From NCBI GenBank assembly GCA_964508365.1, contig CAZDTP010000075.1:1-15741 (forward strand): DNA of 15,741 nucleotides, read 5' to 3'. The translations under genes were made by a program, and so were the position numbers. This document shows positions 5,801 to 15,655 of the stretch, piece after piece. The number at the start of each line of letters is the position of its first letter. The first letter of the stretch is position 1. Below the pieces are notes generated by a model. It was given only the letters and a program-made list of their open reading frames with translations. It was not told where the DNA came from and did not search any database. The DNA comes from an uncultured archaeon. GTDB taxonomy: Archaea; Asgardarchaeota; Lokiarchaeia; Sigyniarchaeales; SOKP01.

Positions 5801-7168
5801 TTAATTTTTAAATCCGCACTTAGGACAATTAGAAGTACCTCTTAAAGTGAAACCACATATCTTGCATAATTTAATAGTACTTTTTCTTGGGGGTTTCAGG
5901 GTAGTTATAGAAATCGTTTCTTTAACTTGAGTGGAACCTTCTGCTTCGCTTATTATTGTTTCAGTTGGAGATGAAAGCAGATTTCCGATTGATTCCTTCT
6001 CTTTAACTGTTATATCCTGCCCAAAATACCCTCCAACTCTGATTTTTTTAGCTGGAGGGGATTCTTGTGGAATATTGTGTAAGCTTGGAGGGGTTTTAAG
6101 AATTTCAGGATTTAGGATTCTTTCGCCAATCGTTATTTTTTGGTCTTCTTCATCAGAGGTAATTTCGTTGATCGTTTGAACCTCAGAGATATCTTCTTCA
6201 ACTTCTTCCTCCGTGATCTCTTCAATTTCTCTATCTTGCTCTACTTCTTCTACATGTTCTTCTTCATAAATCATCTTCACATAGTCTTCGTCGAGTTTTA
6301 AGAGTGTATCGCATTGGATGCATCTAAATAAGTGTTTAAAGCCTATATTATTCGATATTGAATAATCTGCAGCGCAACACGCATGATACTTAGCACCACA
6401 ATTAAAACATTTATGAACTTCGTCTGAATAAGCGCTGCAAATGGGACATACTTCTTTTTCGCAAATATCGCACTTTTCTTCATCATCAGGATCAAGCGAA
6501 ATCAAATCTACTGCTAATTTTTCATAAAAGATCTTATCTTCATTAAGCATTTGATTATCTAATTCAGGTTGTACTACAATAAATTCTGACTTACTCTGGA
6601 GTAAAGATGTGAGTATGTTTAAGAAAGATTTTTCTTCGTCACAATAGAGAACTCCTCCATGTGTTTCGCTTGTAACCACTTTCAATTTTACATCGTCGTT
6701 GTAGAACTTTTGATCTCCTACGCGGATGATGTCAATAAACGTATCAAATTTTTTCGCTTTGATTAGTAGATCGTAAAGAGCATTGTGATAATCATCAGAT
6801 AACGTACTAGGTGTGTCTGAAATTAATATTACCCTATAATTTTTTCGAGCTTCTCGACTTTTTCTGAATATATAAGCTAATATTTCGAATAACCCATTTT
6901 CAAACAAACTTCTTTCAGTTTCTCGAGTTTCCCATTTTTCGTTTAATAACTTTTCATACGATTCAAAATCACTTTCATCATAAAAAGTCACTGGATTATC
7001 CTCTTTTTGAAATAGTAAAAGACCATAAGAAGTTTGAGTATTGAATTTAGCTTTTTCTTTCATGAAAGTACTAATACTCTTGATAAGATTCTTTTTCTTT
7101 AAAAAATCTGTTATGAGATCAACGTAAAAGATAAATTCTTCAGAATTCACTGACTTTTTCTTAAACAT
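5801..7168 (-). CDS. vWA domain + PHD-like Cys/His zinc finger + acidic linker + C-terminal zinc ribbon protein (paralogue A)
   Basis: vWA elements FIFYVD, YGLLLF, SLFENGL, RVILISD, FIDIIRVG and ETHGGVLY. C-x2-C-x4-C-x2-C-x9-C-x2-C-x4-H-x-C-C-x13-H-x3-C-x2-C at about 6311-6472. Terminal CKIC..CPKC. The track starts at TTG 7180; ATG 7168 is preferred. Confidence 0.75.
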   Translation of the reverse strand: MFKKKSVNSEEFIFYVDLITDFLKKKNLIKSISTFMKEKAKFNTQTSYGLLLFQKEDNPVTFYDESDFESYEKLLNEKWETRETERSLFENGLFEILAYIFRKSREARKNYRVILISDTPSTLSDDYHNALYDLLIKAKKFDTFIDIIRVGDQKFYNDDVKLKVVTSETHGGVLYCDEEKSFLNILTSLLQSKSEFIVVQPELDNQMLNEDKIFYEKLAVDLISLDPDDEEKCDICEKEVCPICSAYSDEVHKCFNCGAKYHACCAADYSISNNIGFKHLFRCIQCDTLLKLDEDYVKMIYEEEHVEEVEQDREIEEITEEEVEEDISEVQTINEITSDEEDQKITIGERILNPEILKTPPSLHNIPQESPPAKKIRVGGYFGQDITVKEKESIGNLLSSPTETIISEAEGSTQVKETISITTLKPPRKSTIKLCKICGFTLRGTSNCPKCGFKN

Positions 7169-7269
7169 CTTACGTTCCAAGTGAAATATAAATTATATCC
7201 AAAATAAAAGTAATTTTATATACAATAATAAGAGAATTTTTATTTATTTTTATGGATTAAAATTCGAAA

Positions 7270-8649
7270 TTAAACATCAAGTTTGAATCCGCAGTAAGAA
7301 CAGGATTTTTTATTAATGTCACTCTCTTTTAATTGCGTTCCGCATCCAGGACAAGTTATAAAAGTCGATCTTTTTCGATCTTCGGAAGAACTCCAATATT
7401 TTGGAATTTCCGGTTTTTTAAGATTAATTGGTGTTGTCGAATCGATCTTATTAACATCTAACTGGCGAGATTCTTTATCTTTATCGAGACGGGTCACTTT
7501 TTCATACACTAATTTATCACCTTCTTTTTTAATAGTGTACGTCTTTCCAAAAAACCCTCCAAGCCTTACTCTTTGAACGCCTTGTTTTGATAATTCTGAA
7601 TTTGTAGTCTCAAGTGATTTTTCAGCATTTATTGAAGAATCTTCAATATCAATAGAGTCAGGTTCAGAAATAATAGTGTACTCGTTTACATCCATGCTTT
7701 CTTCTTCAGATTCTAAATATTCATCAATATTTTTAGCTGAATCCTCGAAAGGTACTACGATTTCTTCTTGTCTAATTTTTAAGAGAATCTCACATTTTGG
7801 ACACCTAAAAAGATGCGGAATGCCTATATTATTCTGAATCGTGTAATTAGTCACACAGCAATTATGAAATGCCGCTCCACATCCTTCACAAAGTTGCAAT
7901 GTATCATTTATATCAGCACAACATGGACAAATTTCTTCTTGGCATATATAACATTTCAAACCAACATCATTGGTGGGTGAAGGTTTTAAACTCTTAGCTA
8001 GACGAGAATAAAAATCATAATCATCTTTACTTATTTTAATTTTTTCTGAATTATCTCCTAATAAATTAACGATTTGTTTAGTTTCGGATAATTGTTTAAT
8101 AATCGGAAGGATATCTTTTCTATCTGAGAGATAAAATATCCCACCATTCGTGTCGCTAGCGAGTATGTTTAATTTAACATCATCTTTAAAAAATCGTTCT
8201 TCTTTCTCTGAAACTCGTATAATATCTATAAATGTAGGTATAGCTTTTATTTTAGAAACCAATCCGAATAGTGCTTCCGTATAATCTTCAGATAGATCGC
8301 TTGGTGTATCAGTAATTATGATTATTCTGTTATGTCTTGATTTTTTCTTTATACTTTCAGCGATATACGAGAAGATATAAAATAAACCATTTTCAAAAAA
8401 GGATCGCTTTTTTGGGCGAGATTTCCAATTTTCTTCAATAGCATTTTCTATAATGCTAGAATCTTTTTTACCAGTTATAAAAATTGGATTTCCTTCTTCT
8501 TGAAATATCAGTAAACCATAATGCCCTTTAATATTCGTTTTATTTTTTTGAGATATAAAATACTTAATACCTTTGATAACTTCTTTCTTCTTTAAGATGT
8601 CTTTCGTTAAATCTAAATAAAAAAAAATATCTTCGTAAGGAGAACTCAT
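7270..8649 (-). CDS. vWA domain + PHD-like Cys/His zinc finger + acidic linker + C-terminal zinc ribbon protein (paralogue B)
   Basis: Same blocks as paralogue A (IFFYLD, YGLLIF, SFFENGL, RIIIITD, TFIDIIRV, DTNGGIFY). Identical finger spacing at about 7792-7953. Terminal CPGC..CSYC. The track starts at TTG 8667; ATG 8649 is preferred. Confidence 0.75.
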   Translation of the reverse strand: MSSPYEDIFFYLDLTKDILKKKEVIKGIKYFISQKNKTNIKGHYGLLIFQEEGNPIFITGKKDSSIIENAIEENWKSRPKKRSFFENGLFYIFSYIAESIKKKSRHNRIIIITDTPSDLSEDYTEALFGLVSKIKAIPTFIDIIRVSEKEERFFKDDVKLNILASDTNGGIFYLSDRKDILPIIKQLSETKQIVNLLGDNSEKIKISKDDYDFYSRLAKSLKPSPTNDVGLKCYICQEEICPCCADINDTLQLCEGCGAAFHNCCVTNYTIQNNIGIPHLFRCPKCEILLKIRQEEIVVPFEDSAKNIDEYLESEEESMDVNEYTIISEPDSIDIEDSSINAEKSLETTNSELSKQGVQRVRLGGFFGKTYTIKKEGDKLVYEKVTRLDKDKESRQLDVNKIDSTTPINLKKPEIPKYWSSSEDRKRSTFITCPGCGTQLKESDINKKSCSYCGFKLDV

Positions 8650-8784
8650 AATGATTTTGAGTACCAATAAGATTTATAATTTAGTGTAGAAAGTTATTCT
8701 TTAAATATTTTTTTTATCTAAAAAACTTTAAAAAATAAATATTTATTGTACATATTATTAAAAAGAAAAAGGAATGAGCTTAAA

Positions 8785-10770
8785 ATGGAAGAATTTTTAA
8801 AAAACTTTCAACTTTCAGATAACGCTATTAAATTATACATTAAATGCATTGGTCAACAACCCTTATCATCTCTTGAACTCTATTCAATTTTACCAAATAT
8901 GGCTCAAGAAGATTTTAATAAAGTATTAGAAGACCTCATTGATAATGGCTTATTCGTTTCAAATTCCAATCAAAACCAAGATGTAATTTTGCAATACTTA
9001 GCAATCCCTCCAATAAAACCTATATTAAATTATTATGCAAACATTAACAATAATCTAAATAACATTAAAAGCCAATTACAACTTCTGCTCTCAAACTCTT
9101 TAGCAAAAATTTTCCAGGATAATCAGATAATTGAATTGAATACGGTGTATAACGCAGCACAAGAATTAAGAAAAGATGTCGAAGAAGATATTATCATCCA
9201 GAAACAAGATATTGATGATATTGTACAAGGAATGGAAAATTTAAACATCATAAAAGATGTTTTGGAGAACTTACGTCAAACAATCAAGGGAGTAACTCAA
9301 ACTCAATTTTCATCGCTAATCAAACTAATTGCCAATATTAAAAATGAAATTTACAGTAAAATCGAGAGTTTAGAATTAAAAAAATCAGAGAATGTTGTAA
9401 AAGAAATAGTCGAAGAAGCCTTCAAGGAAAATTTTAATAAATTGCTTGGAGATTTTACTGCCAACTTACATAAATTGATTGGAGACGAGTTTGACAATAC
9501 AATCGAATCGCTTAATAATATTCTGGATTCAACATTTCAATTTCGAGACGATTTTAAGATGGTACTACTTAATATGCTGTCTACAAATGAAAAAAAGATT
9601 AAAAATATAATTGAACAGATCCAAACTAAGAAAACACTCTTAGAAAAGGACCTTAAAGAGTTCGAAAAAATAATAGTCGATAATTTCACCGAAATAATAG
9701 AAAAATCCGTCGATTCGGTAGCATCCTTAAATGAACCAATTAATAATACTTTAGACAACTATTTTAATACAATTATAAAATCAAATGAGCTAGAAACCGA
9801 TAACATTTGGCGAATCAAAAGTAAAGCAAGAGTAAAAGAAGAAATAAGTAATATTATCTCTCATTCTACTCAAAATTTATTGTTAGTTGTCCCAAAACTA
9901 GAAGAAAATTTATCATTTGATGATTTTAAAGATATTCCAAGTAGCATTAAAATTCAAATTGCTTCCTCAGAAGCTCATACTAATAGTCTCGTTAAAAAAT
10001 ATAAAGATTTAAAGAACTTCGAATACAGAATCCTTAAAAACGAAAATGTTATCATTTGTAGAGGGGACGAAGAAAACCTTTTAATTGGTATCATAGATAC
10101 GGAATCAAAAAATTCTTCAGATAATTTTATTGGTTTCGCGTCAAGAAATAAATCTCTAATAAAATTGTTCCATTTTGTTGTTAAAGCGATATGGGATATT
10201 AGTAGCTCGAGTTTGCATGAAAAGCCTAGAACTCTTAATATAACGGTTTCAAAAACAAGTAACGTTTTAAAAACTCCTATAACCACAAAAATATCTGAAC
10301 CTATTGGACCATCTCCGATTGAAACAACGATAAAAACTACTCCTACTCCTATAACTAAAAAACCGGTTATTATTCAAGAAAAAAAACAAAAGGCTGAATC
10401 CTCGGAAGGTAAAATTGCACATTTAGCTGAAAAACTCAATAACAAAATCAAAGAACCTAAAGAAGTACAGGAATCCGATCAAATACCTAAACATACTAAA
10501 GAGCCAAAGATACTTGATGAATCTGGAATTGTAATAAATAACGCGTTTAAGAATTTAATCAATAACCTACATAAGCTTAAGGGCGATGAAGTCAGTAAAG
10601 AAATGGCGATTATCGCAGATTTGATTTTAGAGAAAAAAGGATTTAGTGTTACCCTTCACAAGATTAGAAGCAAAATAAACCAATATAAAAATCGCCTAAG
10701 TCATTTAAACGATGCTGATATTAATAGCATTATTGAAAGTATTGAAGAATGGAAGGAACACATTCTATAA
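8785..10770 (+). CDS. TrmB-like protein: N-terminal winged HTH, long helical/coiled-coil insert, TrmB effector-binding-like (PLD-like) domain, Thr/Pro-rich linker, C-terminal helical domain
   Basis: N-terminal FQLSDNAIKLY..PLSSLEL..VLEDLIDNGL..YLAIPP matches the TrmB HTH pattern. IWRIKSK..EEISNII...LLLVVP and ICRGDEENLLIG..IGF..N..LIKLF..IW match the TrmB C-terminal pattern. The track starts at TTG 8746; ATG 8785 is preferred. Confidence 0.6.
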   Translation: MEEFLKNFQLSDNAIKLYIKCIGQQPLSSLELYSILPNMAQEDFNKVLEDLIDNGLFVSNSNQNQDVILQYLAIPPIKPILNYYANINNNLNNIKSQLQLLLSNSLAKIFQDNQIIELNTVYNAAQELRKDVEEDIIIQKQDIDDIVQGMENLNIIKDVLENLRQTIKGVTQTQFSSLIKLIANIKNEIYSKIESLELKKSENVVKEIVEEAFKENFNKLLGDFTANLHKLIGDEFDNTIESLNNILDSTFQFRDDFKMVLLNMLSTNEKKIKNIIEQIQTKKTLLEKDLKEFEKIIVDNFTEIIEKSVDSVASLNEPINNTLDNYFNTIIKSNELETDNIWRIKSKARVKEEISNIISHSTQNLLLVVPKLEENLSFDDFKDIPSSIKIQIASSEAHTNSLVKKYKDLKNFEYRILKNENVIICRGDEENLLIGIIDTESKNSSDNFIGFASRNKSLIKLFHFVVKAIWDISSSSLHEKPRTLNITVSKTSNVLKTPITTKISEPIGPSPIETTIKTTPTPITKKPVIIQEKKQKAESSEGKIAHLAEKLNNKIKEPKEVQESDQIPKHTKEPKILDESGIVINNAFKNLINNLHKLKGDEVSKEMAIIADLILEKKGFSVTLHKIRSKINQYKNRLSHLNDADINSIIESIEEWKEHIL

Positions 10771-10810: not shown

Positions 10811-11596
10811 TTAATCTGGTTTTGTATCTTTCCCTTTTGCGAGTAAGTTCAACAAAAAAGAGTGAAAGGTTACCCAAACAAGCAATGTAATAAATGCTAT
10901 CAAAAAAATAATTGCTACAGTCATTGATACTATAAAATTGGGATTTAATATACCAATGAGCCCAAAAATAGGAGAAAGTGGAGCGAAAAGAATAAAAAGA
11001 TAATACACACTTTTACCTTTTTCACCAAATTTAATGTAAGTAGTTATATTTAACCACCCAATAAAAGCTAATAGAAAGGGCACAATATAATAAGCTATAT
11101 CCAAGAAAGGATAAGTTAAACCACCAAATGCAAACGCGTAAAAATAATTTGTATAGAAGAATCCTATTATTAAAAGACAACTTACAGGTGTAGGTACACC
11201 TGTATATCCAGGATTTTCGAGGATATTAAATCTAGCTAACCTTAATACTGCACCTAAGGCGAAACATATGCATCCAATTACTAGGATAAAATCGTAGACT
11301 GTTCCAGTTTTGAATGCTTGAAATGACAAAATTGCTGGGACAATACCGAACGTTAAAGAATCGCTTAGAGAATCTAATTCTCTGCCCATATCGTTTACAG
11401 TTCCCGTTTTTCTTGCAATATAGCCATCAATAAGATCGGTACCTAAAGTAATTGTGATTAAAAAAAAACCTAAGGAAACAGCATCCCTGGTTCCAAATGA
11501 ACCACAAATCAACGCAATAATTCCTATCGTGGTCCCTATAAGCGTTATGTAATCTTTAAATTTTAATAAGCTTGGTATCGTTGATTTTAGTGACAT
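10811..11596 (-). CDS. pssA: CDP-alcohol phosphatidyltransferase, PssA-like (probable archaetidylserine/phosphatidylserine synthase)
   Basis: Family motif DLIDGYIAR-x8-G-x2-LDSLSD, plus PssA-type SLTFGIVPA, LRLARFN and GVPTP. Multiple TM segments. Confidence 0.8.
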   Translation of the reverse strand: MSLKSTIPSLLKFKDYITLIGTTIGIIALICGSFGTRDAVSLGFFLITITLGTDLIDGYIARKTGTVNDMGRELDSLSDSLTFGIVPAILSFQAFKTGTVYDFILVIGCICFALGAVLRLARFNILENPGYTGVPTPVSCLLIIGFFYTNYFYAFAFGGLTYPFLDIAYYIVPFLLAFIGWLNITTYIKFGEKGKSVYYLFILFAPLSPIFGLIGILNPNFIVSMTVAIIFLIAFITLLVWVTFHSFLLNLLAKGKDTKPD

Positions 11597-11666
11597 TTTT
11601 TTCCCACTTCTTTTTTATATTATAATTAAAATTTTAGTTTAATTAAAACATTTCTTTATAATGCAA

Positions 11667-11690
11667 GTAGGGATTCCAAACTATCCTTAC
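11667..11690. promoter_or_regulatory. Imperfect inverted repeat GTAGGGAT-N8-ATCCTTAC in the divergent pssA / LURP-one intergenic region (possible operator)
   Basis: 8-bp arms with one mismatch, GC-richer than the surrounding AT-rich spacer. Confidence 0.3.
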
Positions 11691-11760
11691 ATTTATTAGA
11701 CTAAATTGATTATTCATGATTAAACTAAAATATTGATAAATTATAGAAAAGGTTTATTTT

Positions 11761-12543
11761 ATGAAGTGCCCAAATTGTGGAGACCCTGCTAGTGAAGATC
11801 AGAAATTTTGTGAAAAATGTGGTTCTGAACTACGATCTATTAAGAGCCAACCCAAAAATCAAAATCAAATTAGTTTAACTTCAACTCCAAAACAAACACC
11901 TCTAGAAAGTGCTAGTTTGTTTAATATAAACCGTAATTATTATATAATTAAAGAACGCATGTGGGATATGGGATACGGCGATATTATGGATGAAGAGGGA
12001 AAGCTCATCGGAAGAATGAATAGAATTCTTTTTAGCATAAGGAGAAGAGTTGAACTTCAAGAACTTGATGGAACGGTTGTTGCCACCATTCATAGTAAAA
12101 TAGTTTCTGCTCGTGGGGCCCAAGATTTGAAAACCCCAGATGGAGAACTTATCGCAAGAATTAAAAAGAAAATATTAACATTCTTTAGATCGAAATTCTT
12201 TTTAGAAGATCCTCTCGGTACACGCTGGTTTGAAGCTGATGGGGACTTTTTTGGTTGGTCGTTTAAAATCTACGATTTAACTACGGGAAAATTAGTTGCC
12301 GAAATAGAAAAAGCAGATAGATGGAGAGATGTCTTCTTAGGTGGAATCTTTGACTTTGCAGATAGATACGCCCTAAGAATTTTAGACAATGAGACTGATA
12401 GAAGGATTTTAGTAGGTTTTGTTTTGTCCATTGATAATGTGATGCACGATAGTGGTGGAATGGGGCCAATGATTGGTGGAATGGGGCCAGGCCGCCGTGG
12501 AAGGTTTCCAGGTCCTTTTGGAGGCCCTCGTCGTAGAATGTGA
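11761..12543 (+). CDS. Zinc ribbon + LURP-one-related/scramblase (Tubby-like barrel) protein with a Gly/Pro/Arg-rich tail
   Basis: N-terminal CPNCG-x9-CEKCG. Repeated beta-hairpin units (D.EG.LIG, ELDGTVVA.I, TPDGELIA.IKKK, FEADGDFFGWSFKI, LVAEIEK). Terminal hydrophobic helix RRILVGFVLSID. Confidence 0.75.
   Translation: MKCPNCGDPASEDQKFCEKCGSELRSIKSQPKNQNQISLTSTPKQTPLESASLFNINRNYYIIKERMWDMGYGDIMDEEGKLIGRMNRILFSIRRRVELQELDGTVVATIHSKIVSARGAQDLKTPDGELIARIKKKILTFFRSKFFLEDPLGTRWFEADGDFFGWSFKIYDLTTGKLVAEIEKADRWRDVFLGGIFDFADRYALRILDNETDRRILVGFVLSIDNVMHDSGGMGPMIGGMGPGRRGRFPGPFGGPRRRM
12453..12489 (+). repeat. 16-bp direct repeat (TGGTGGAATGGGGCCA x2, 21-nt period) encoding GGMGP twice
   Basis: Exact copies at 12453-12468 and 12474-12489. 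Confidence 0.9.
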
Positions 12544-12552
12544 TTCAAGAAG

Positions 12553-12566
12553 TTTTTATATAAAAA
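12553..12566. terminator. Putative bidirectional terminator between convergent genes
   Basis: Palindrome TTTTTATATAAAAA gives a T5 on each strand; a further T-run lies near 12578-12584. Confidence 0.35.
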
Positions 12567-12589
12567 TAATTCCCATCTTTTTTTAATTC

Positions 12590-13081
12590 TTATAACTCTC
12601 TTCCACAATTCTTACAAAATTTCCAAATATGAGAAATCTCTTCCCCACAATTAAAACATCTATTAGTTAAAGGTATTACCTCAAAATCGCCAACATTCTG
12701 TGTGTTTTTATTTGCTTTAATTGCGAGTAATATTGTAGAATTGATTATTTCACTTAAATTAATACTTTCTTGGCGTCCACTACTTCTTTCATTCGCCATA
12801 GTTATAGAAAACGAAAGACCATCCCTGGTTTCAATTACTACAACATAGATTTTTTGGATTGTTGCAACATACGCTTTTTCAATTTGCGTTAAAGGAATTA
12901 CAAAGCCTTCTTTGTAATTATCAACCGAGGAACCTATTTCAGTAAGTTTTATATTTGATTTTTTTACGAGTGATAGTTCCAATGCTGATAAAATGATTCT
13001 TCCATATTCCATCTTGAACTTCCAATCCTTTTCTACTTCCCCTTCGCAAAAATAACCCTTGGTACTATAAACCAATGCCAT
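12590..13081 (-). CDS. PH/GRAM-like fold protein with C-terminal zinc ribbon
   Basis: YGRIILSALELSLV (G-x-h-x-L-T/S-x3-L-x-h), FVIPLTQIEKA (IPL..I), VVIETRDGLSFSI (I.T.DG..F) and a closing helix INLSEIINSTIL follow the PH-superfold pattern. Ends with CFNCG-x9-CKNCG. Confidence 0.6.
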   Translation of the reverse strand: MALVYSTKGYFCEGEVEKDWKFKMEYGRIILSALELSLVKKSNIKLTEIGSSVDNYKEGFVIPLTQIEKAYVATIQKIYVVVIETRDGLSFSITMANERSSGRQESINLSEIINSTILLAIKANKNTQNVGDFEVIPLTNRCFNCGEEISHIWKFCKNCGREL

Positions 13082-13260
13082 TTTTTTTGACTTTTTCCTA
13101 TTTTTAATAATATAAATTTATTTCTTAGTTTCTTATTCTATATGTGTACTACCGTCTTAATAAGTTCTAGTAGTCCAATTTTTAAAAAGAGCAAAAATTT
13201 TTATAGATATAATTTGATTATACTTTAAAAACCTTAATATAAAGAAAAAGAGAGAAAAAA

Positions 13261-13794
13261 ATGTCGCTTCAAAAGACTAGAGAATTTATGCTTCGTGAGA
13301 AAATGATTTCTTTAACAGATAAAGGCGAAATCAGGAATATAGAAAACGAATTACTTGGAACATTTAGAGGAAAATTAATTAAGATTGGTAATACCTACCG
13401 GATAAGAGATCTTGATGAAGTTCCTATATTAACGATTCAAGAAAAATTAATCTCCTTACGTGCTATTTACAAGTTTTATAAGGGAGGGGAAAAAGAGGAC
13501 GATAAATTAATTGGGCAACTTAAAAGAAAGATCGTAGCCATTAAGCCAAGTTATTGGTTTGAGGATCCTAATGAGAATAGAGTTTTCACGATGAAAGGAA
13601 ACATCTTGACGCTTAAATTCAAAATTTTTAAAGATGGTCAAGAGGTTGCCGAAATACGAAAAAAATTATGGAAAAGTCTTCTAAAGAATACTTTTGGAAT
13701 AAAAATGTCTCCAGACCTTGACGACGATTCTGCAATGCTTATTCTTGGGATAGTCATTATGCTCCACCACGAGAAAGAGGAAAATAGAAATTAA
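13261..13794 (+). CDS. LURP-one-related/scramblase (Tubby-like barrel) protein, second copy, without zinc ribbon or tail
   Basis: FMLREKMISL, YRIRD.DE.PIL.IQEKLIS, IGQLKRKI, FTMKGNIL..KFKI..DGQEVAEIRKK and terminal helix AMLILGIVIML. Confidence 0.75.
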   Translation: MSLQKTREFMLREKMISLTDKGEIRNIENELLGTFRGKLIKIGNTYRIRDLDEVPILTIQEKLISLRAIYKFYKGGEKEDDKLIGQLKRKIVAIKPSYWFEDPNENRVFTMKGNILTLKFKIFKDGQEVAEIRKKLWKSLLKNTFGIKMSPDLDDDSAMLILGIVIMLHHEKEENRN

Positions 13795-13813
13795 GCGTTA
13801 TAAGATTAGGCTG

Positions 13814-13857
13814 TTTGTTTGTTTTTCTTATTTTATTTTTTTTATTCTATTATTTTT
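13814..13857 (+). terminator. T-rich putative terminator after the second LURP-one gene
   Basis: Several T-tracts, including T8 at 13836-13843, starting about 20 nt after the stop. Confidence 0.45.
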
Positions 13858-13987
13858 AACGAAAGCAAGTGAGTTTTTGAATAGATTTTAATATCGGAAA
13901 TTTTATATTTTGGTAAAAAGACTATTTCGTTAAATAGCCCTTTTTTAAATCAATTCTATAAATTTAAATATGTTCTAAAAATAACTT

Positions 13988-14914
13988 ATGACCGAAATTT
14001 ACGAAGAATTCATAGTTTATGATTTACAGAACACGGGAGAACGCACGAAATTAAATATTAAGCCAGAAGAGCTTCAAAATCATTTAAATCCTGAACAAGT
14101 GCTAATAATAATACGTGAGGACCTTAGGAGGATTTACATTTGGAAAGGCTCGAAATCTCCTGTAAGAAAAAGGTTCATAAGCTCTCGAGTAGCACAGGAT
14201 TTGCAAAAAAATTTAATTGATGACTCTCGGTATCATAGATGTAAAATAATCTCCATAGATCAAGGAGATGAACTGCAAGAATTTTTAAACGCGTTCAGGT
14301 TGGAATCTATGGAAGTAATAGAACGGCTTCCCGATATGCGCTATATAAGAAACATTGAGCGCGACAGATTGCTCGAGCAAGAACGCCTTGCGAAAGAAAA
14401 GAAAGAGGGGAAGGTGAAACTTGATGACGATTATTATTCTCCAGCTTTAGAAGATACAACTGATGATGTGGTAATGTCATCAATTGGAATAGGGATCCCT
14501 TTGAATAAGGAAAGAGATCGATTGGTACGACATTCAAAAATTAGCGCAACTATTGGATTAGCAGACGAGGAAAAAGAAAAAATCAAAGAAAAAATATTAA
14601 AGATTAGCATCCCCGAAAATATGGAGCGACAAAACTTAATTCTTGGACATAACTTATATGGTGCTGTTTCGAAAGTAACAGATGTTTTTGGAAAGAATGT
14701 CGTAGAAGTTGTTTGGGAGGAAGTTAAAAAGGTTCCGAAAGGTGTACTTGAATTGGATGAGAACGTCTTTAGAGTTTATTTTGATGATAAAAAAGGGATA
14801 GTCGAAGCAGTAGAAGTACTCAAGAAAAGTGAAGAGTTATCCGAAGGTAATATTGAAAAACCTAAGCCCACTACTAGAAGAGAACTGCCAAAAATCCCTA
14901 GTAGCGAAGATTAA
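13988..14914 (+). CDS. Single gelsolin-domain protein with C-terminal extension (Asgard 1DGelX-like actin regulator)
   Basis: Residues about 5-105 show the gelsolin repeat pattern LNPEQVLIII..D.RRIYIWKG.KS...KRF.SSR.A..L...IISIDQGDE.QEFL..F. A charged helical segment and a C-terminal alpha/beta region follow. Confidence 0.8.
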   Translation: MTEIYEEFIVYDLQNTGERTKLNIKPEELQNHLNPEQVLIIIREDLRRIYIWKGSKSPVRKRFISSRVAQDLQKNLIDDSRYHRCKIISIDQGDELQEFLNAFRLESMEVIERLPDMRYIRNIERDRLLEQERLAKEKKEGKVKLDDDYYSPALEDTTDDVVMSSIGIGIPLNKERDRLVRHSKISATIGLADEEKEKIKEKILKISIPENMERQNLILGHNLYGAVSKVTDVFGKNVVEVVWEEVKKVPKGVLELDENVFRVYFDDKKGIVEAVEVLKKSEELSEGNIEKPKPTTRRELPKIPSSED

Positions 14915-14980: not shown

Positions 14981-15655
14981 TTATAGTTCGTACGAATCTT
15001 CGTCTTCTACATCAATCTCTCTGAGGGTATCCTCTTCTTCATCTTTCAAGTCATCGTGATCAGCAATTTTTTGTTCGGTTTCAACTGGTTTTGATACTTT
15101 TTCTTCCTCTTCCTCTTTTTTCGCTTCTACTTTTTTCTCGGGTTTGTTTTTCTTTTTAATTTTCTTTAAACCCTCTATTGCCTCTTTTCGCACTATAGGA
15201 CTTGGATCTTTTAGAGCTTTCGCTAGCACATCAAGAGAGTAAGGGTGATGAAAATCGCCCAATTCATCAGCAGCTTCTTGTCGAACAATTTCGTCTCTGT
15301 CGTTTAATAGGATGTAAGCAAAAACTCCCAAAACCTCGTTTTCTCCTAAATCTCCTAATGTGTCTACAGCGTCTTTCCTAACGCCGGGATTAGGATCTGT
15401 TAAAGCCGTGTTGGCTAATTCCTTTAATGTTCTATCCGAATATCCAAGCGGTTGAATACCGCTTAAATCAACTCCGCAAAATTTGCAAAAATTATGCCCA
15501 ATTTTAATGACTTTTCCGCACGCAAGGCAAATACGCTGGGTTTCAAAATCAATTATAGGATTTGTAAAACTCGTGGGAGTTGGCTCACGTACAGGTTCTC
15601 TATTTACCCTATAAGGATTGTTCGTACGATCTTGATTATACCTATCGTTTCCCAT
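14981..15655 (-). CDS. Zinc ribbon + PBS-lyase-type HEAT repeat protein with acidic tail
   Basis: CLACG-x9-CKFCG followed by three HEAT-like repeats (DPNPGVRKDAVDTLG, DRDEIVRQEAADELG, DPSPIVRKEAIEGL) and a K/E/D-rich tail. Confidence 0.8.
   Translation of the reverse strand: MGNDRYNQDRTNNPYRVNREPVREPTPTSFTNPIIDFETQRICLACGKVIKIGHNFCKFCGVDLSGIQPLGYSDRTLKELANTALTDPNPGVRKDAVDTLGDLGENEVLGVFAYILLNDRDEIVRQEAADELGDFHHPYSLDVLAKALKDPSPIVRKEAIEGLKKIKKKNKPEKKVEAKKEEEEEKVSKPVETEQKIADHDDLKDEEEDTLREIDVEDEDSYEL

Follow-up and report, generated by a model that had tools for sequence, protein, structure and literature searches.

Asgard archaea encode gelsolins in which one gelsolin domain is joined to a part named X (1DGelX). 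Akil et al. reported that the Thor protein both severs actin and nucleates it, independently of calcium, in assays with rabbit actin (Akil et al. 2020, PMC7444086). B35_GelX of L. ossiferum groups with Thor GelX, and gelsolins were found to co-precipitate with Lokiactin (10.1101/2025.11.30.690169). Both papers describe the X part as predicted coiled coil or disordered; neither discusses gene neighbourhoods or reports a lipid effect on Asgard gelsolins, and PMC7444086 makes no mention of phosphatidylinositol 4,5-bisphosphate (PIP2). Here we analysed a 1DGelX-type gene, GelX, together with its neighbours in a stretch of Asgard DNA. The window, i.e. the whole stretch that was analysed, is the complete contig C75 (15.7 kb) of an Asgard genome (G000) with 4.07 Mb and about 30% G+C. 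Five consecutive open reading frames at 10811-14914, on strands - + - + + and with gaps of 164, 46, 179 and 193 nt, encode a PssA-type synthase, a LURP-one-related (LOR) protein with a zinc ribbon (ZnR-LOR), a PH-like protein, a stand-alone LOR protein and GelX (Table 1). Between them the open reading frame listing of the window holds only small, overlapping and spurious-looking frames.

In our reading, to which we give a probability of about 0.6, this stretch is a composite of two units and not one module: an inherited gene order, one relocated pair of PH-like and LOR genes, and GelX as an independent actin regulator of the 1DGelX type. Unit A would be an ancestral Lokiarchaeial neighbourhood in which the single PssA-type synthase gene is divergent from ZnR-LOR, followed by a co-directional GelX that would be read from its own promoter and would sever or nucleate Lokiactin filaments. 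Unit B would be the PH-fold protein and the stand-alone LOR barrel, acting as a two-protein unit; within the window's genus, one sub-lineage would have relocated it to the spacer that separates ZnR-LOR from GelX, and there the PH copies carry a zinc ribbon. Among the top literature matches for Asgard Tubby, LURP, scramblase and PH proteins there was no paper on the neighbourhood of pssA, ZnR-LOR and GelX. New points are that the PH-like/LOR unit is mobile, that GelX has a promoter-like element, that LOR and GelX are phyletically uncoupled and that domain X is modelled as folded.

The comparison set comprised about 130 related genomes, the relatives being deposited as Promethearchaeota/Lokiarchaeota metagenome-assembled genomes. 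The surroundings of GelX orthologues were taken from 30 relatives and, by a pattern scan, from 80 species-level genomes (loci L031-L110), and all genes of the window were mapped onto them. We denote the window's family as f1 (134 genomes and 13 genera in the sample), its sister family as f2 and genera by g-numbers. An f1 locus was counted as informative when enough DNA upstream of GelX was available, which left 71 species-level loci. The presence of domain X and of LOR was counted by family across 399 Asgard genomes.

According to genome-wide profile searches, the 4.1 kb of the five genes hold both of the only LOR genes of the genome, its only PssA-type gene and one of its three genes that combine a gelsolin domain with domain X. 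Because of this, the co-location is no chance scatter. The arrangement is inherited, and therefore the real question is whether selection or inertia has kept it. An earlier reading made from the sequence alone (the sequence-only reading) had described five adjacent genes with no unrelated gene between them, and the open reading frames, the Pfam and NCBIfam matches, the PDB matches and two structure models agree with this. Its caveat that alternating strands do not make one operon was also borne out. Besides the strand changes, an operon or co-transcribed module is contradicted by the promoter-like element of GelX itself, by flanking genes that are similarly collinear in f1 and by the mobility of the PH-like/LOR pair.

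Gene order in the family and the PH-like/LOR pair

In f1, ZnR-LOR was found upstream of GelX, with or without inserts, in 71/71 informative loci, and in 68 loci pssA and ZnR-LOR stand head-to-head. The conserved order runs from two genes for vWA-zinc-finger proteins (A and B) over a gene labelled TrmB-like to pssA, ZnR-LOR, GelX and a gene for a zinc-ribbon HEAT-repeat protein (ZnR-HEAT). The vWA-finger pair and the TrmB-like gene (5801-10770) are collinear with the trio of pssA, ZnR-LOR and GelX in 56-62 of the 80 loci L031-L110, and ZnR-HEAT follows GelX in nearly all f1 loci; the f2 loci have neither. Collinearity extends for at least 8 kb more, over a DeoC-type aldolase, two small open reading frames, DUF711 and an HdrA/MvhD-like gene, with similar retention. 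Since these unrelated flanking genes stay similarly collinear, conservation within f1 reflects general collinearity and is not a signal of the five genes. We infer that most of the clustering goes back to inherited order and not to a shared mechanism.

The firmest new point is that the PH-like and LOR genes form a self-contained, tightly conserved and mobile divergent pair in Lokiarchaeia, which is the best-supported functional unit of the stretch. Of the 71 informative loci, only nine have the pair between ZnR-LOR and GelX, six in the window's exact order (ZnR-LOR, PH-ZnR, LOR, GelX) and three with an extra ZnR-LOR copy. Homologues of the PH-like protein numbered 116 in a database search; every one came from a Lokiarchaeial assembly, and they have two forms, one of 163 aa with a ribbon and one of 119-126 aa without it; among the sampled loci the ribbon-bearing form occurs at the GelX locus only. 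Starting from four short-form proteins, we found in 7/7 places that the PH gene, short and without a ribbon, stands head-to-head with a LOR gene (176 aa), the two being separated by 179-186 nt. The spacer measures 179 nt, the length seen in the window, at the unrelated locations L136-L139 and 185-186 nt in L170-L172. Seen from the other side, the stand-alone LOR gene has a PH-like partner in 11 of 20 sampled f1 loci. Elsewhere the pair occurs in at least two other contexts, with an FGGY kinase, an acyl-CoA synthetase and TYW2 as unrelated neighbours and with a different context in genus g1; the stand-alone LOR loci with a PH-like partner in the window's own genus also lie in a context other than that of the FGGY kinase. 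As G000 has only two LOR genes, both at this locus, the pair was moved and not copied. A clean empty site of the pair was not found in G000, where a homologue of only one flanking gene was present and the context varies between genera. Taken together, the two proteins probably act as one unit, and a functional partnership is a more solid proposal for the pairing of a PH fold with a Tubby-like LOR barrel than for a lipid-actin module.

Apart from its C-terminal ribbon, the PH-like protein has no Pfam match, and no sequence similarity to the PH families of Pfam or the PDB was found. Its AlphaFold model, built with 49 homologues (predicted local distance difference test, pLDDT, 79), consists of seven strands closed off by a C-terminal helix. 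It matches PH and PTB domains with Z 12-13.4 and a root-mean-square deviation (rmsd) of 2.1-3.0 over 100-118 residues, and the top Foldseek matches are all PH-type. Judged from this model, the protein is a member of the PH superfold: the seven-strand sandwich with its C-terminal helix cap is shared with the PH domains of GRK2, IQSEC1 and TAPP1, the PTB domains of CCM2 and Fe65 and the GRAM-like domains of Lam6 and MTMR6. The earlier label PH/GRAM is hence correct as to the superfold, whereas its GRAM part is not favoured over a plain PH or PTB assignment. In contrast to these domains, the PH-like protein of the window has a conserved acidic b1-b2 loop and a net charge of about zero, and its fusion to a zinc ribbon is confined to one sub-lineage. 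Its core is near-neutral (16 K+R against 15 D+E, pI 7.8); instead of the basic b1-b2 motif Kx(n)(K/R)xR and a positive face it shows the conserved acidic loop FCEGEV..W. Moreover, protein-binding modules of the PTB and Exo84 type are among its best structural matches.

These data bear on the proposal of the sequence-only reading that all five genes form one membrane-to-actin module, linking the synthesis, sensing or transfer of anionic lipids to gelsolin-driven actin remodelling. The genes are indeed consecutive, all fold calls hold, the same order recurs in six species loci and in three more with the additional ZnR-LOR copy, and the restriction of the zinc-ribbon PH form to the GelX site could mark a functional adaptation. 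However, the five are not conserved as a single unit, as the PH-like/LOR pair is a separate one that also lives in other contexts, and its insertion sits upstream of the promoter-like element of GelX. A lipid-sensing role of the PH-like protein, which the proposal assumed, does not agree with the charge of a core whose acidic loop stands where phosphoinositide-binding PH domains are basic, and the PH superfold contains many protein-binding modules. We therefore consider a five-gene module very unlikely.

GelX, its upstream element and domain X

GelX matches PF00626 at 1.8e-5 with 24.9 bits (cut-off 21), and its sequence matches in the PDB are the Thor, Loki and Heimdall gelsolins (7c2f, 7whg, 7whf) at E values of 4e-5 to 4e-3. 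The model of its gelsolin domain superimposes on Thor ProGel (7c2f) with Z 12.3 and rmsd 1.9 over 87/88 residues (Foldseek E 9.5e-6). There is no second PF00626 match; the single gelsolin domain is followed by domain X, which is not a gelsolin domain. With one N-terminal domain of the gelsolin/cofilin type and a C-terminal X, GelX shares the layout of Thor 1DGelX and L. ossiferum B35_GelX, an Asgard-wide family. Judged from this architecture, it would be an orthologue of Thor 1DGelX; a compact model of X and a conserved RxLPxIP tail set it apart. By analogy with its Thor counterpart, GelX most likely acts by severing or nucleating Lokiactin filaments.

Domain X (window 14564-14827) was modelled as a compact fold of a helix and five strands with pLDDT 81-87. 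It was found in 297 of the 399 Asgard genomes and in three copies in the genome of the window. X is thus predicted to be a folded pan-Asgard domain and not a coiled coil or a disordered region. A degenerate second gelsolin domain was considered and rejected, with an hhalign probability of 0.1 and no sequence match in the PDB. Structural comparison returned unconvincing matches, the best at Z of about 4 (dCache/GPR158), and a feature search of the protein atlas returned only unnamed Asgard clusters at 0.80. At the far C-terminus, the motif RRELPKIPSxxD (window 14876-14911, aa 297-308; RxLPxIP) is conserved in the f1 and f2 orthologues, and it fits the RxLPxxP pattern of class I SH3-ligand-like sequences.

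Upstream of GelX, alignment revealed an A/T-rich element that is kept whether LOR or ZnR-LOR precedes the gene and that has one exact match in the window. The median gap between ZnR-LOR and GelX is about 217 nt. Because the element is kept irrespective of the upstream gene, GelX probably has its own promoter.

In eukaryotes gelsolin is controlled by PI(4,5)P2, and the only idea that this shares with the present locus is that of an anionic lipid controlling a gelsolin-domain protein. We identified no PIP2-binding segment in GelX like that of the G1-G2 linker, and, unlike eukaryotic gelsolin, Thor 1DGelX is independent of calcium.

Linkage of pssA, ZnR-LOR and GelX beyond the family

Several observations weigh against inherited order as the whole explanation. 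Only pssA, ZnR-LOR and GelX, out of about 15 genes collinear in f1, are still together in f2, a pattern that would be expected from selection for linkage. In the closed 6.0-Mb genome of f2 genus g24 (G170; pssA at 813148-813888, ZnR-LOR at 816175-816897, GelX from 817598) the order is PIN-ATPase, pssA(-), MFS, TM218(+), ZnR-LOR(+), macro(+), GelX(+), with the trio within 5.5 kb and in the same orientation as in f1. ZnR-LOR overlaps the macro-domain gene there by 20 nt and GelX lies about 90 nt further on, which looks like an operon. Genus g8 has ZnR-LOR, macro and GelX in a row with pssA 19.5 kb off, and in g2 pssA stands beside TM220, macro and GelX. Nothing speaks more strongly for some selection on the linkage of the three genes than this persistence without the other genes of the f1 block. 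Furthermore, a GFP fusion of Thor 1DGelX in human U2OS cells was concentrated at regions of the endoplasmic reticulum and the nuclear membrane (PMC7444086), which hints at membrane affinity.

The remaining loci of f2 and beyond are less uniform. The closed g2 genome (G032) keeps pssA and GelX and has no ZnR-LOR match. In genera g5 (G030) and g23 (G169) the trio is spread over different contigs; the g23 assembly is fragmented, so that adjacency across contig ends is possible there. In family f4 only GelX was found and no ZnR-LOR. The arrangement in f2 looks like a common ancestral order that has decayed, with the trio whole in one genus, partial in two and dispersed in at least one. In g5 (L111:1605-3941 and 8788-9438) ZnR-LOR is about 5 kb from an HdrA/MvhD-like gene although GelX has moved away; the f1 homologue of that gene lies about 4-5 kb downstream of GelX, and remnants of a larger ancestral segment are therefore suggested. 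The gene between ZnR-LOR and GelX in f2 encodes a macro domain of the ADP-ribose-binding or hydrolase type (L145:10882-11496, L029:8897-9472, L028:10949-11521, L113:3631-4167), overlaps ZnR-LOR by 20 nt in L145 and is preceded by a membrane protein of 218-220 aa without a Pfam family.

Across Asgard families the presence of LOR and that of GelX are uncoupled. LOR is present in 192 of the 399 genomes, fewer than domain X, and many families have one alone. Domain X was found in 4/4 genomes of f4, 7/7 of f5-f7, 20/22 of f16, 17/19 of f19 and 4/4 of f27, with LOR in 0/4, 0/7, 0/22, 1/19 and 0/4 of them, respectively. Conversely, f13 and f18 have LOR without domain X (f13: X 0/31, LOR 5/31). In addition, 20 LOR loci, 17 of them from eight other Asgard families, contained no gelsolin gene or pssA within about 9 kb.

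The linkage in g24, g8 and g2 would be accounted for if the trio were a lipid-actin association in which PssA makes archaetidylserine, locally or under shared regulation, and ZnR-LOR binds this or another anionic lipid and recruits or modulates GelX at the membrane, the PH-like/LOR pair being a later add-on in one sub-lineage. The co-direction of ZnR-LOR with GelX everywhere, the overlap with the intervening macro gene in g24, the divergent spacer of about 170 nt between pssA and ZnR-LOR in 68 loci and the localisation of Thor 1DGelX in U2OS cells agree with this. A precedent may be seen in the reversal of the Odin profilin effect by phosphoinositide (PIP) lipids, at least as it is cited in a passage of 10.1101/2025.11.30.690169. 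On the other hand, GelX persists in G032 and f4, where no ZnR-LOR was found, the genes are scattered in g5 and g23, GelX has a promoter-like element of its own at some distance from ZnR-LOR, and PssA is the sole serine-type synthase of the genome. We know of no prokaryotic LOR protein with an established ligand or with demonstrated lipid binding, and we found no precedent in the literature for binding or scrambling of anionic lipids by such proteins. We regard the three-gene association as unlikely. Inherited order with an independent GelX remains the explanation that we prefer.

The comparison of gene order across Asgard genomes, which the sequence-only reading had proposed as a check, thus upholds the inner trio, linked in f1 and in three f2 genera, but not the five-gene order. 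The link of lipids to actin that it had drawn at the level of the locus is weakly supported, since unrelated metabolic neighbours are at least as well conserved in f1, LOR and GelX are uncoupled and PssA probably has a housekeeping role.

LURP-one-related proteins (DUF567; PF04525; At5g01750, PDB 1zxu) belong to the Tubby-C/phospholipid-scramblase superfamily (Bateman et al. 2009, PMC2639001). Both LOR genes of the window score above the gathering threshold of PF04525, with 44.6 and 50 bits against 24.5. ZnR-LOR matches it at 1.7e-11, besides a zinc ribbon at 3e-7, and the stand-alone LOR at 3.5e-13. The family profile of ZnR-LOR matches 1zxu at 3e-4 and aligns with it over the whole barrel. 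Weaker matches of the stand-alone LOR to Tubby_C_like (1.6e-4) and Scramblase (3.4e-4) stayed under the cut-offs, and for the LOR genes PF23728 Tubby_C_like gave 22.1 bits (cut-off 24.4) and PF03803 Scramblase 18.9-20.5 bits (cut-off 25.4). On these profile scores, the two proteins are members of the Tubby/scramblase superfamily and not of the Tubby_C_like or Scramblase families; the earlier call of two Tubby/scramblase proteins is right for the superfamily through PF04525 and too narrow in the two family names. The PI(4,5)P2 site of Tubby cannot be mapped onto the LOR proteins of the window. In contrast to typical LURP-one-related proteins, one of the two copies has a zinc ribbon and a basic tail. 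The ZnR-LOR architecture is common to several Asgard families in the alignment, whereas the Gly/Pro/Arg tail (window 12457-12540, aa 233-260, pI 12) is restricted to f1 orthologues and absent from f2 and other Asgard families. Some relatives (L044, L047, L039, L040, L050) have a tandem second ZnR-LOR copy, 61-65% identical to that of the window, directly upstream of GelX.

The PssA-type protein matches PF01066 at E 1.6e-14 with 55 bits. Its best NCBIfam match is TIGR00473 pssA (95.6 bits, just under the 107-bit cut-off), and the archaeal equivalog models NF038087 (64.9 bits, cut-off 240) and TIGR04217 (61.6 bits, cut-off 200) also score below their thresholds. No curated equivalog cut-off is reached, but the serine type is still the best match by far, well above PgsA or archaetidylinositol-phosphate synthase. 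The closest PDB match is the phosphatidylserine synthase of M. jannaschii (7pow/7b1k, E 1e-20). The signature DxxDGxxARx8Gx3Dx3D, which known phosphatidylserine and archaetidylserine synthases share, is intact at about aa 53-78 of the translation; compared with them, the protein (261 aa) has a longer C-terminal membrane part. To judge from 7pow/7b1k as its closest relatives, serine would be the alcohol that it accepts. Of five CDP-alcohol transferases in the genome, PssA is the only serine-type enzyme, and for this reason it is probably the general archaetidylserine synthase of the cell. The other four resemble archaetidylinositol-phosphate synthases (contigs C16, C7, C8 and C23 of G000; L141-L144), an unusually large set, all under the equivalog cut-off.

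The connection between actin and the membrane in Asgard archaea is a question for eukaryogenesis, and to our knowledge no membrane adaptor for Lokiactin regulators has been described. A wider proposal would see in the linkage of pssA, ZnR-LOR and GelX a pre-eukaryotic coupling, in which the Tubby-like barrel reads archaetidylserine or inositol lipids and positions a gelsolin-type severing protein at the membrane, with the PH-like/LOR pair as a second, exchangeable lipid-reading unit in one lineage. We think this quite improbable. Nevertheless, the locus provides a concrete and cheap set for experiments (the GelX, ZnR-LOR and PssA products, with orthologues in the closed 6.0-Mb f2 genome), which is a lead and not a finding.

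Zinc ribbons and flanking genes

Tubby, PLSCR and LOR proteins have been proposed as membrane-tethered transcription factors (PMC2639001). On this basis, the neighbourhood could serve nucleic acids or regulation, with the ribbons of ZnR-LOR, PH-ZnR, ZnR-HEAT and the two vWA-zinc-finger proteins working in complexes of protein and nucleic acid, be it in transcription or elsewhere. Zinc ribbons or fingers are indeed encoded by five genes that belong to the block or adjoin it, ZnR-LOR has its basic Gly/Pro/Arg tail, and the TrmB-like gene stands between the vWA-finger pair and pssA, although Pfam gives its product a weak winged-helix match only. The vWA-finger pair resembles p44/Ssl1 and p34/Tfb4 of TFIIH in language-model features. 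In TFIIH these two are paralogous proteins with a vWA domain and a finger that heterodimerise. However, archaeal proteins very often have a small zinc ribbon at one end, and such ribbons are a poor guide to function. A Pfam scan detected no DNA-binding domain in the LOR or PH proteins, and most PH-like homologues lack the ribbon, as does the stand-alone LOR. We give hardly any weight to this explanation and keep to a composite of two units.

Table 1. Features of the GelX locus and its flanks; positions refer to the window.
Feature	Position	Strand	Basis or comment
PssA-type CDP-alcohol phosphatidyltransferase, candidate archaetidylserine synthase, 261 aa	10811-11596	-	Pfam, NCBIfam and PDB matches
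Divergent pssA/ZnR-LOR spacer, 164 nt	11597-11760		Head-to-head kept in 68 loci, median about 172 nt
ZnR-LOR, 260 aa: zinc ribbon aa 2-24, linker, LURP-one/Tubby-like barrel aa 72-222, Gly/Pro/Arg tail aa 233-260	11761-12543	+	Pfam, profile
Predicted PH-superfold protein, 163 aa: PH core aa 1-127, C-terminal zinc ribbon aa 139-163	12590-13081	-	AlphaFold model
Divergent PH-like/LOR spacer, 179 nt	13082-13260		Spacer length compared at other loci
Stand-alone LOR (LURP-one/Tubby-like barrel), 177 aa, pI 9.45	13261-13794	+	PF04525
Promoter-like A/T-rich element AAATTTTATATTTTGG, conserved, 75 nt ahead of the start of GelX	13898-13913	+	Alignment of GelX upstream regions
GelX of the 1DGelX type, 308 aa: gelsolin domain (aa 8-104), a helix with a disordered linker, domain X (aa 193-280) and the RRELPKIPSSED motif at the C-terminus (aa 297-308)	13988-14914	+	PF00626, model
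ZnR-HEAT, zinc-ribbon HEAT-repeat protein, convergent on GelX	14981-15655	-	HEAT_2 at 1.7e-19
Paralogous pair of vWA-zinc-finger proteins	5801-7180 and 7270-8667	both -	Collinear in f1, in the upstream part of the block (5801-10770)
Protein labelled TrmB-like, 674 aa	8746-10770	+	Pfam: weak winged-helix match only

The combination of a vWA-finger pair with a gelsolin also suggested Sec23/Sec24, in which trunk, finger and gelsolin parts form a set in COPII. This candidate was rejected, as the features of the pair point to TFIIH-like proteins and its PDB profile search gave only zinc-finger noise; the gelsolin domains of Sec23/24 are only ordinary fold matches of the GelX model. Pfam returned no vWA match for the pair, and its language-model features score 0.94 against Asgard VWA/Ssl1 clusters and 0.89 against eukaryotic TF2H2.

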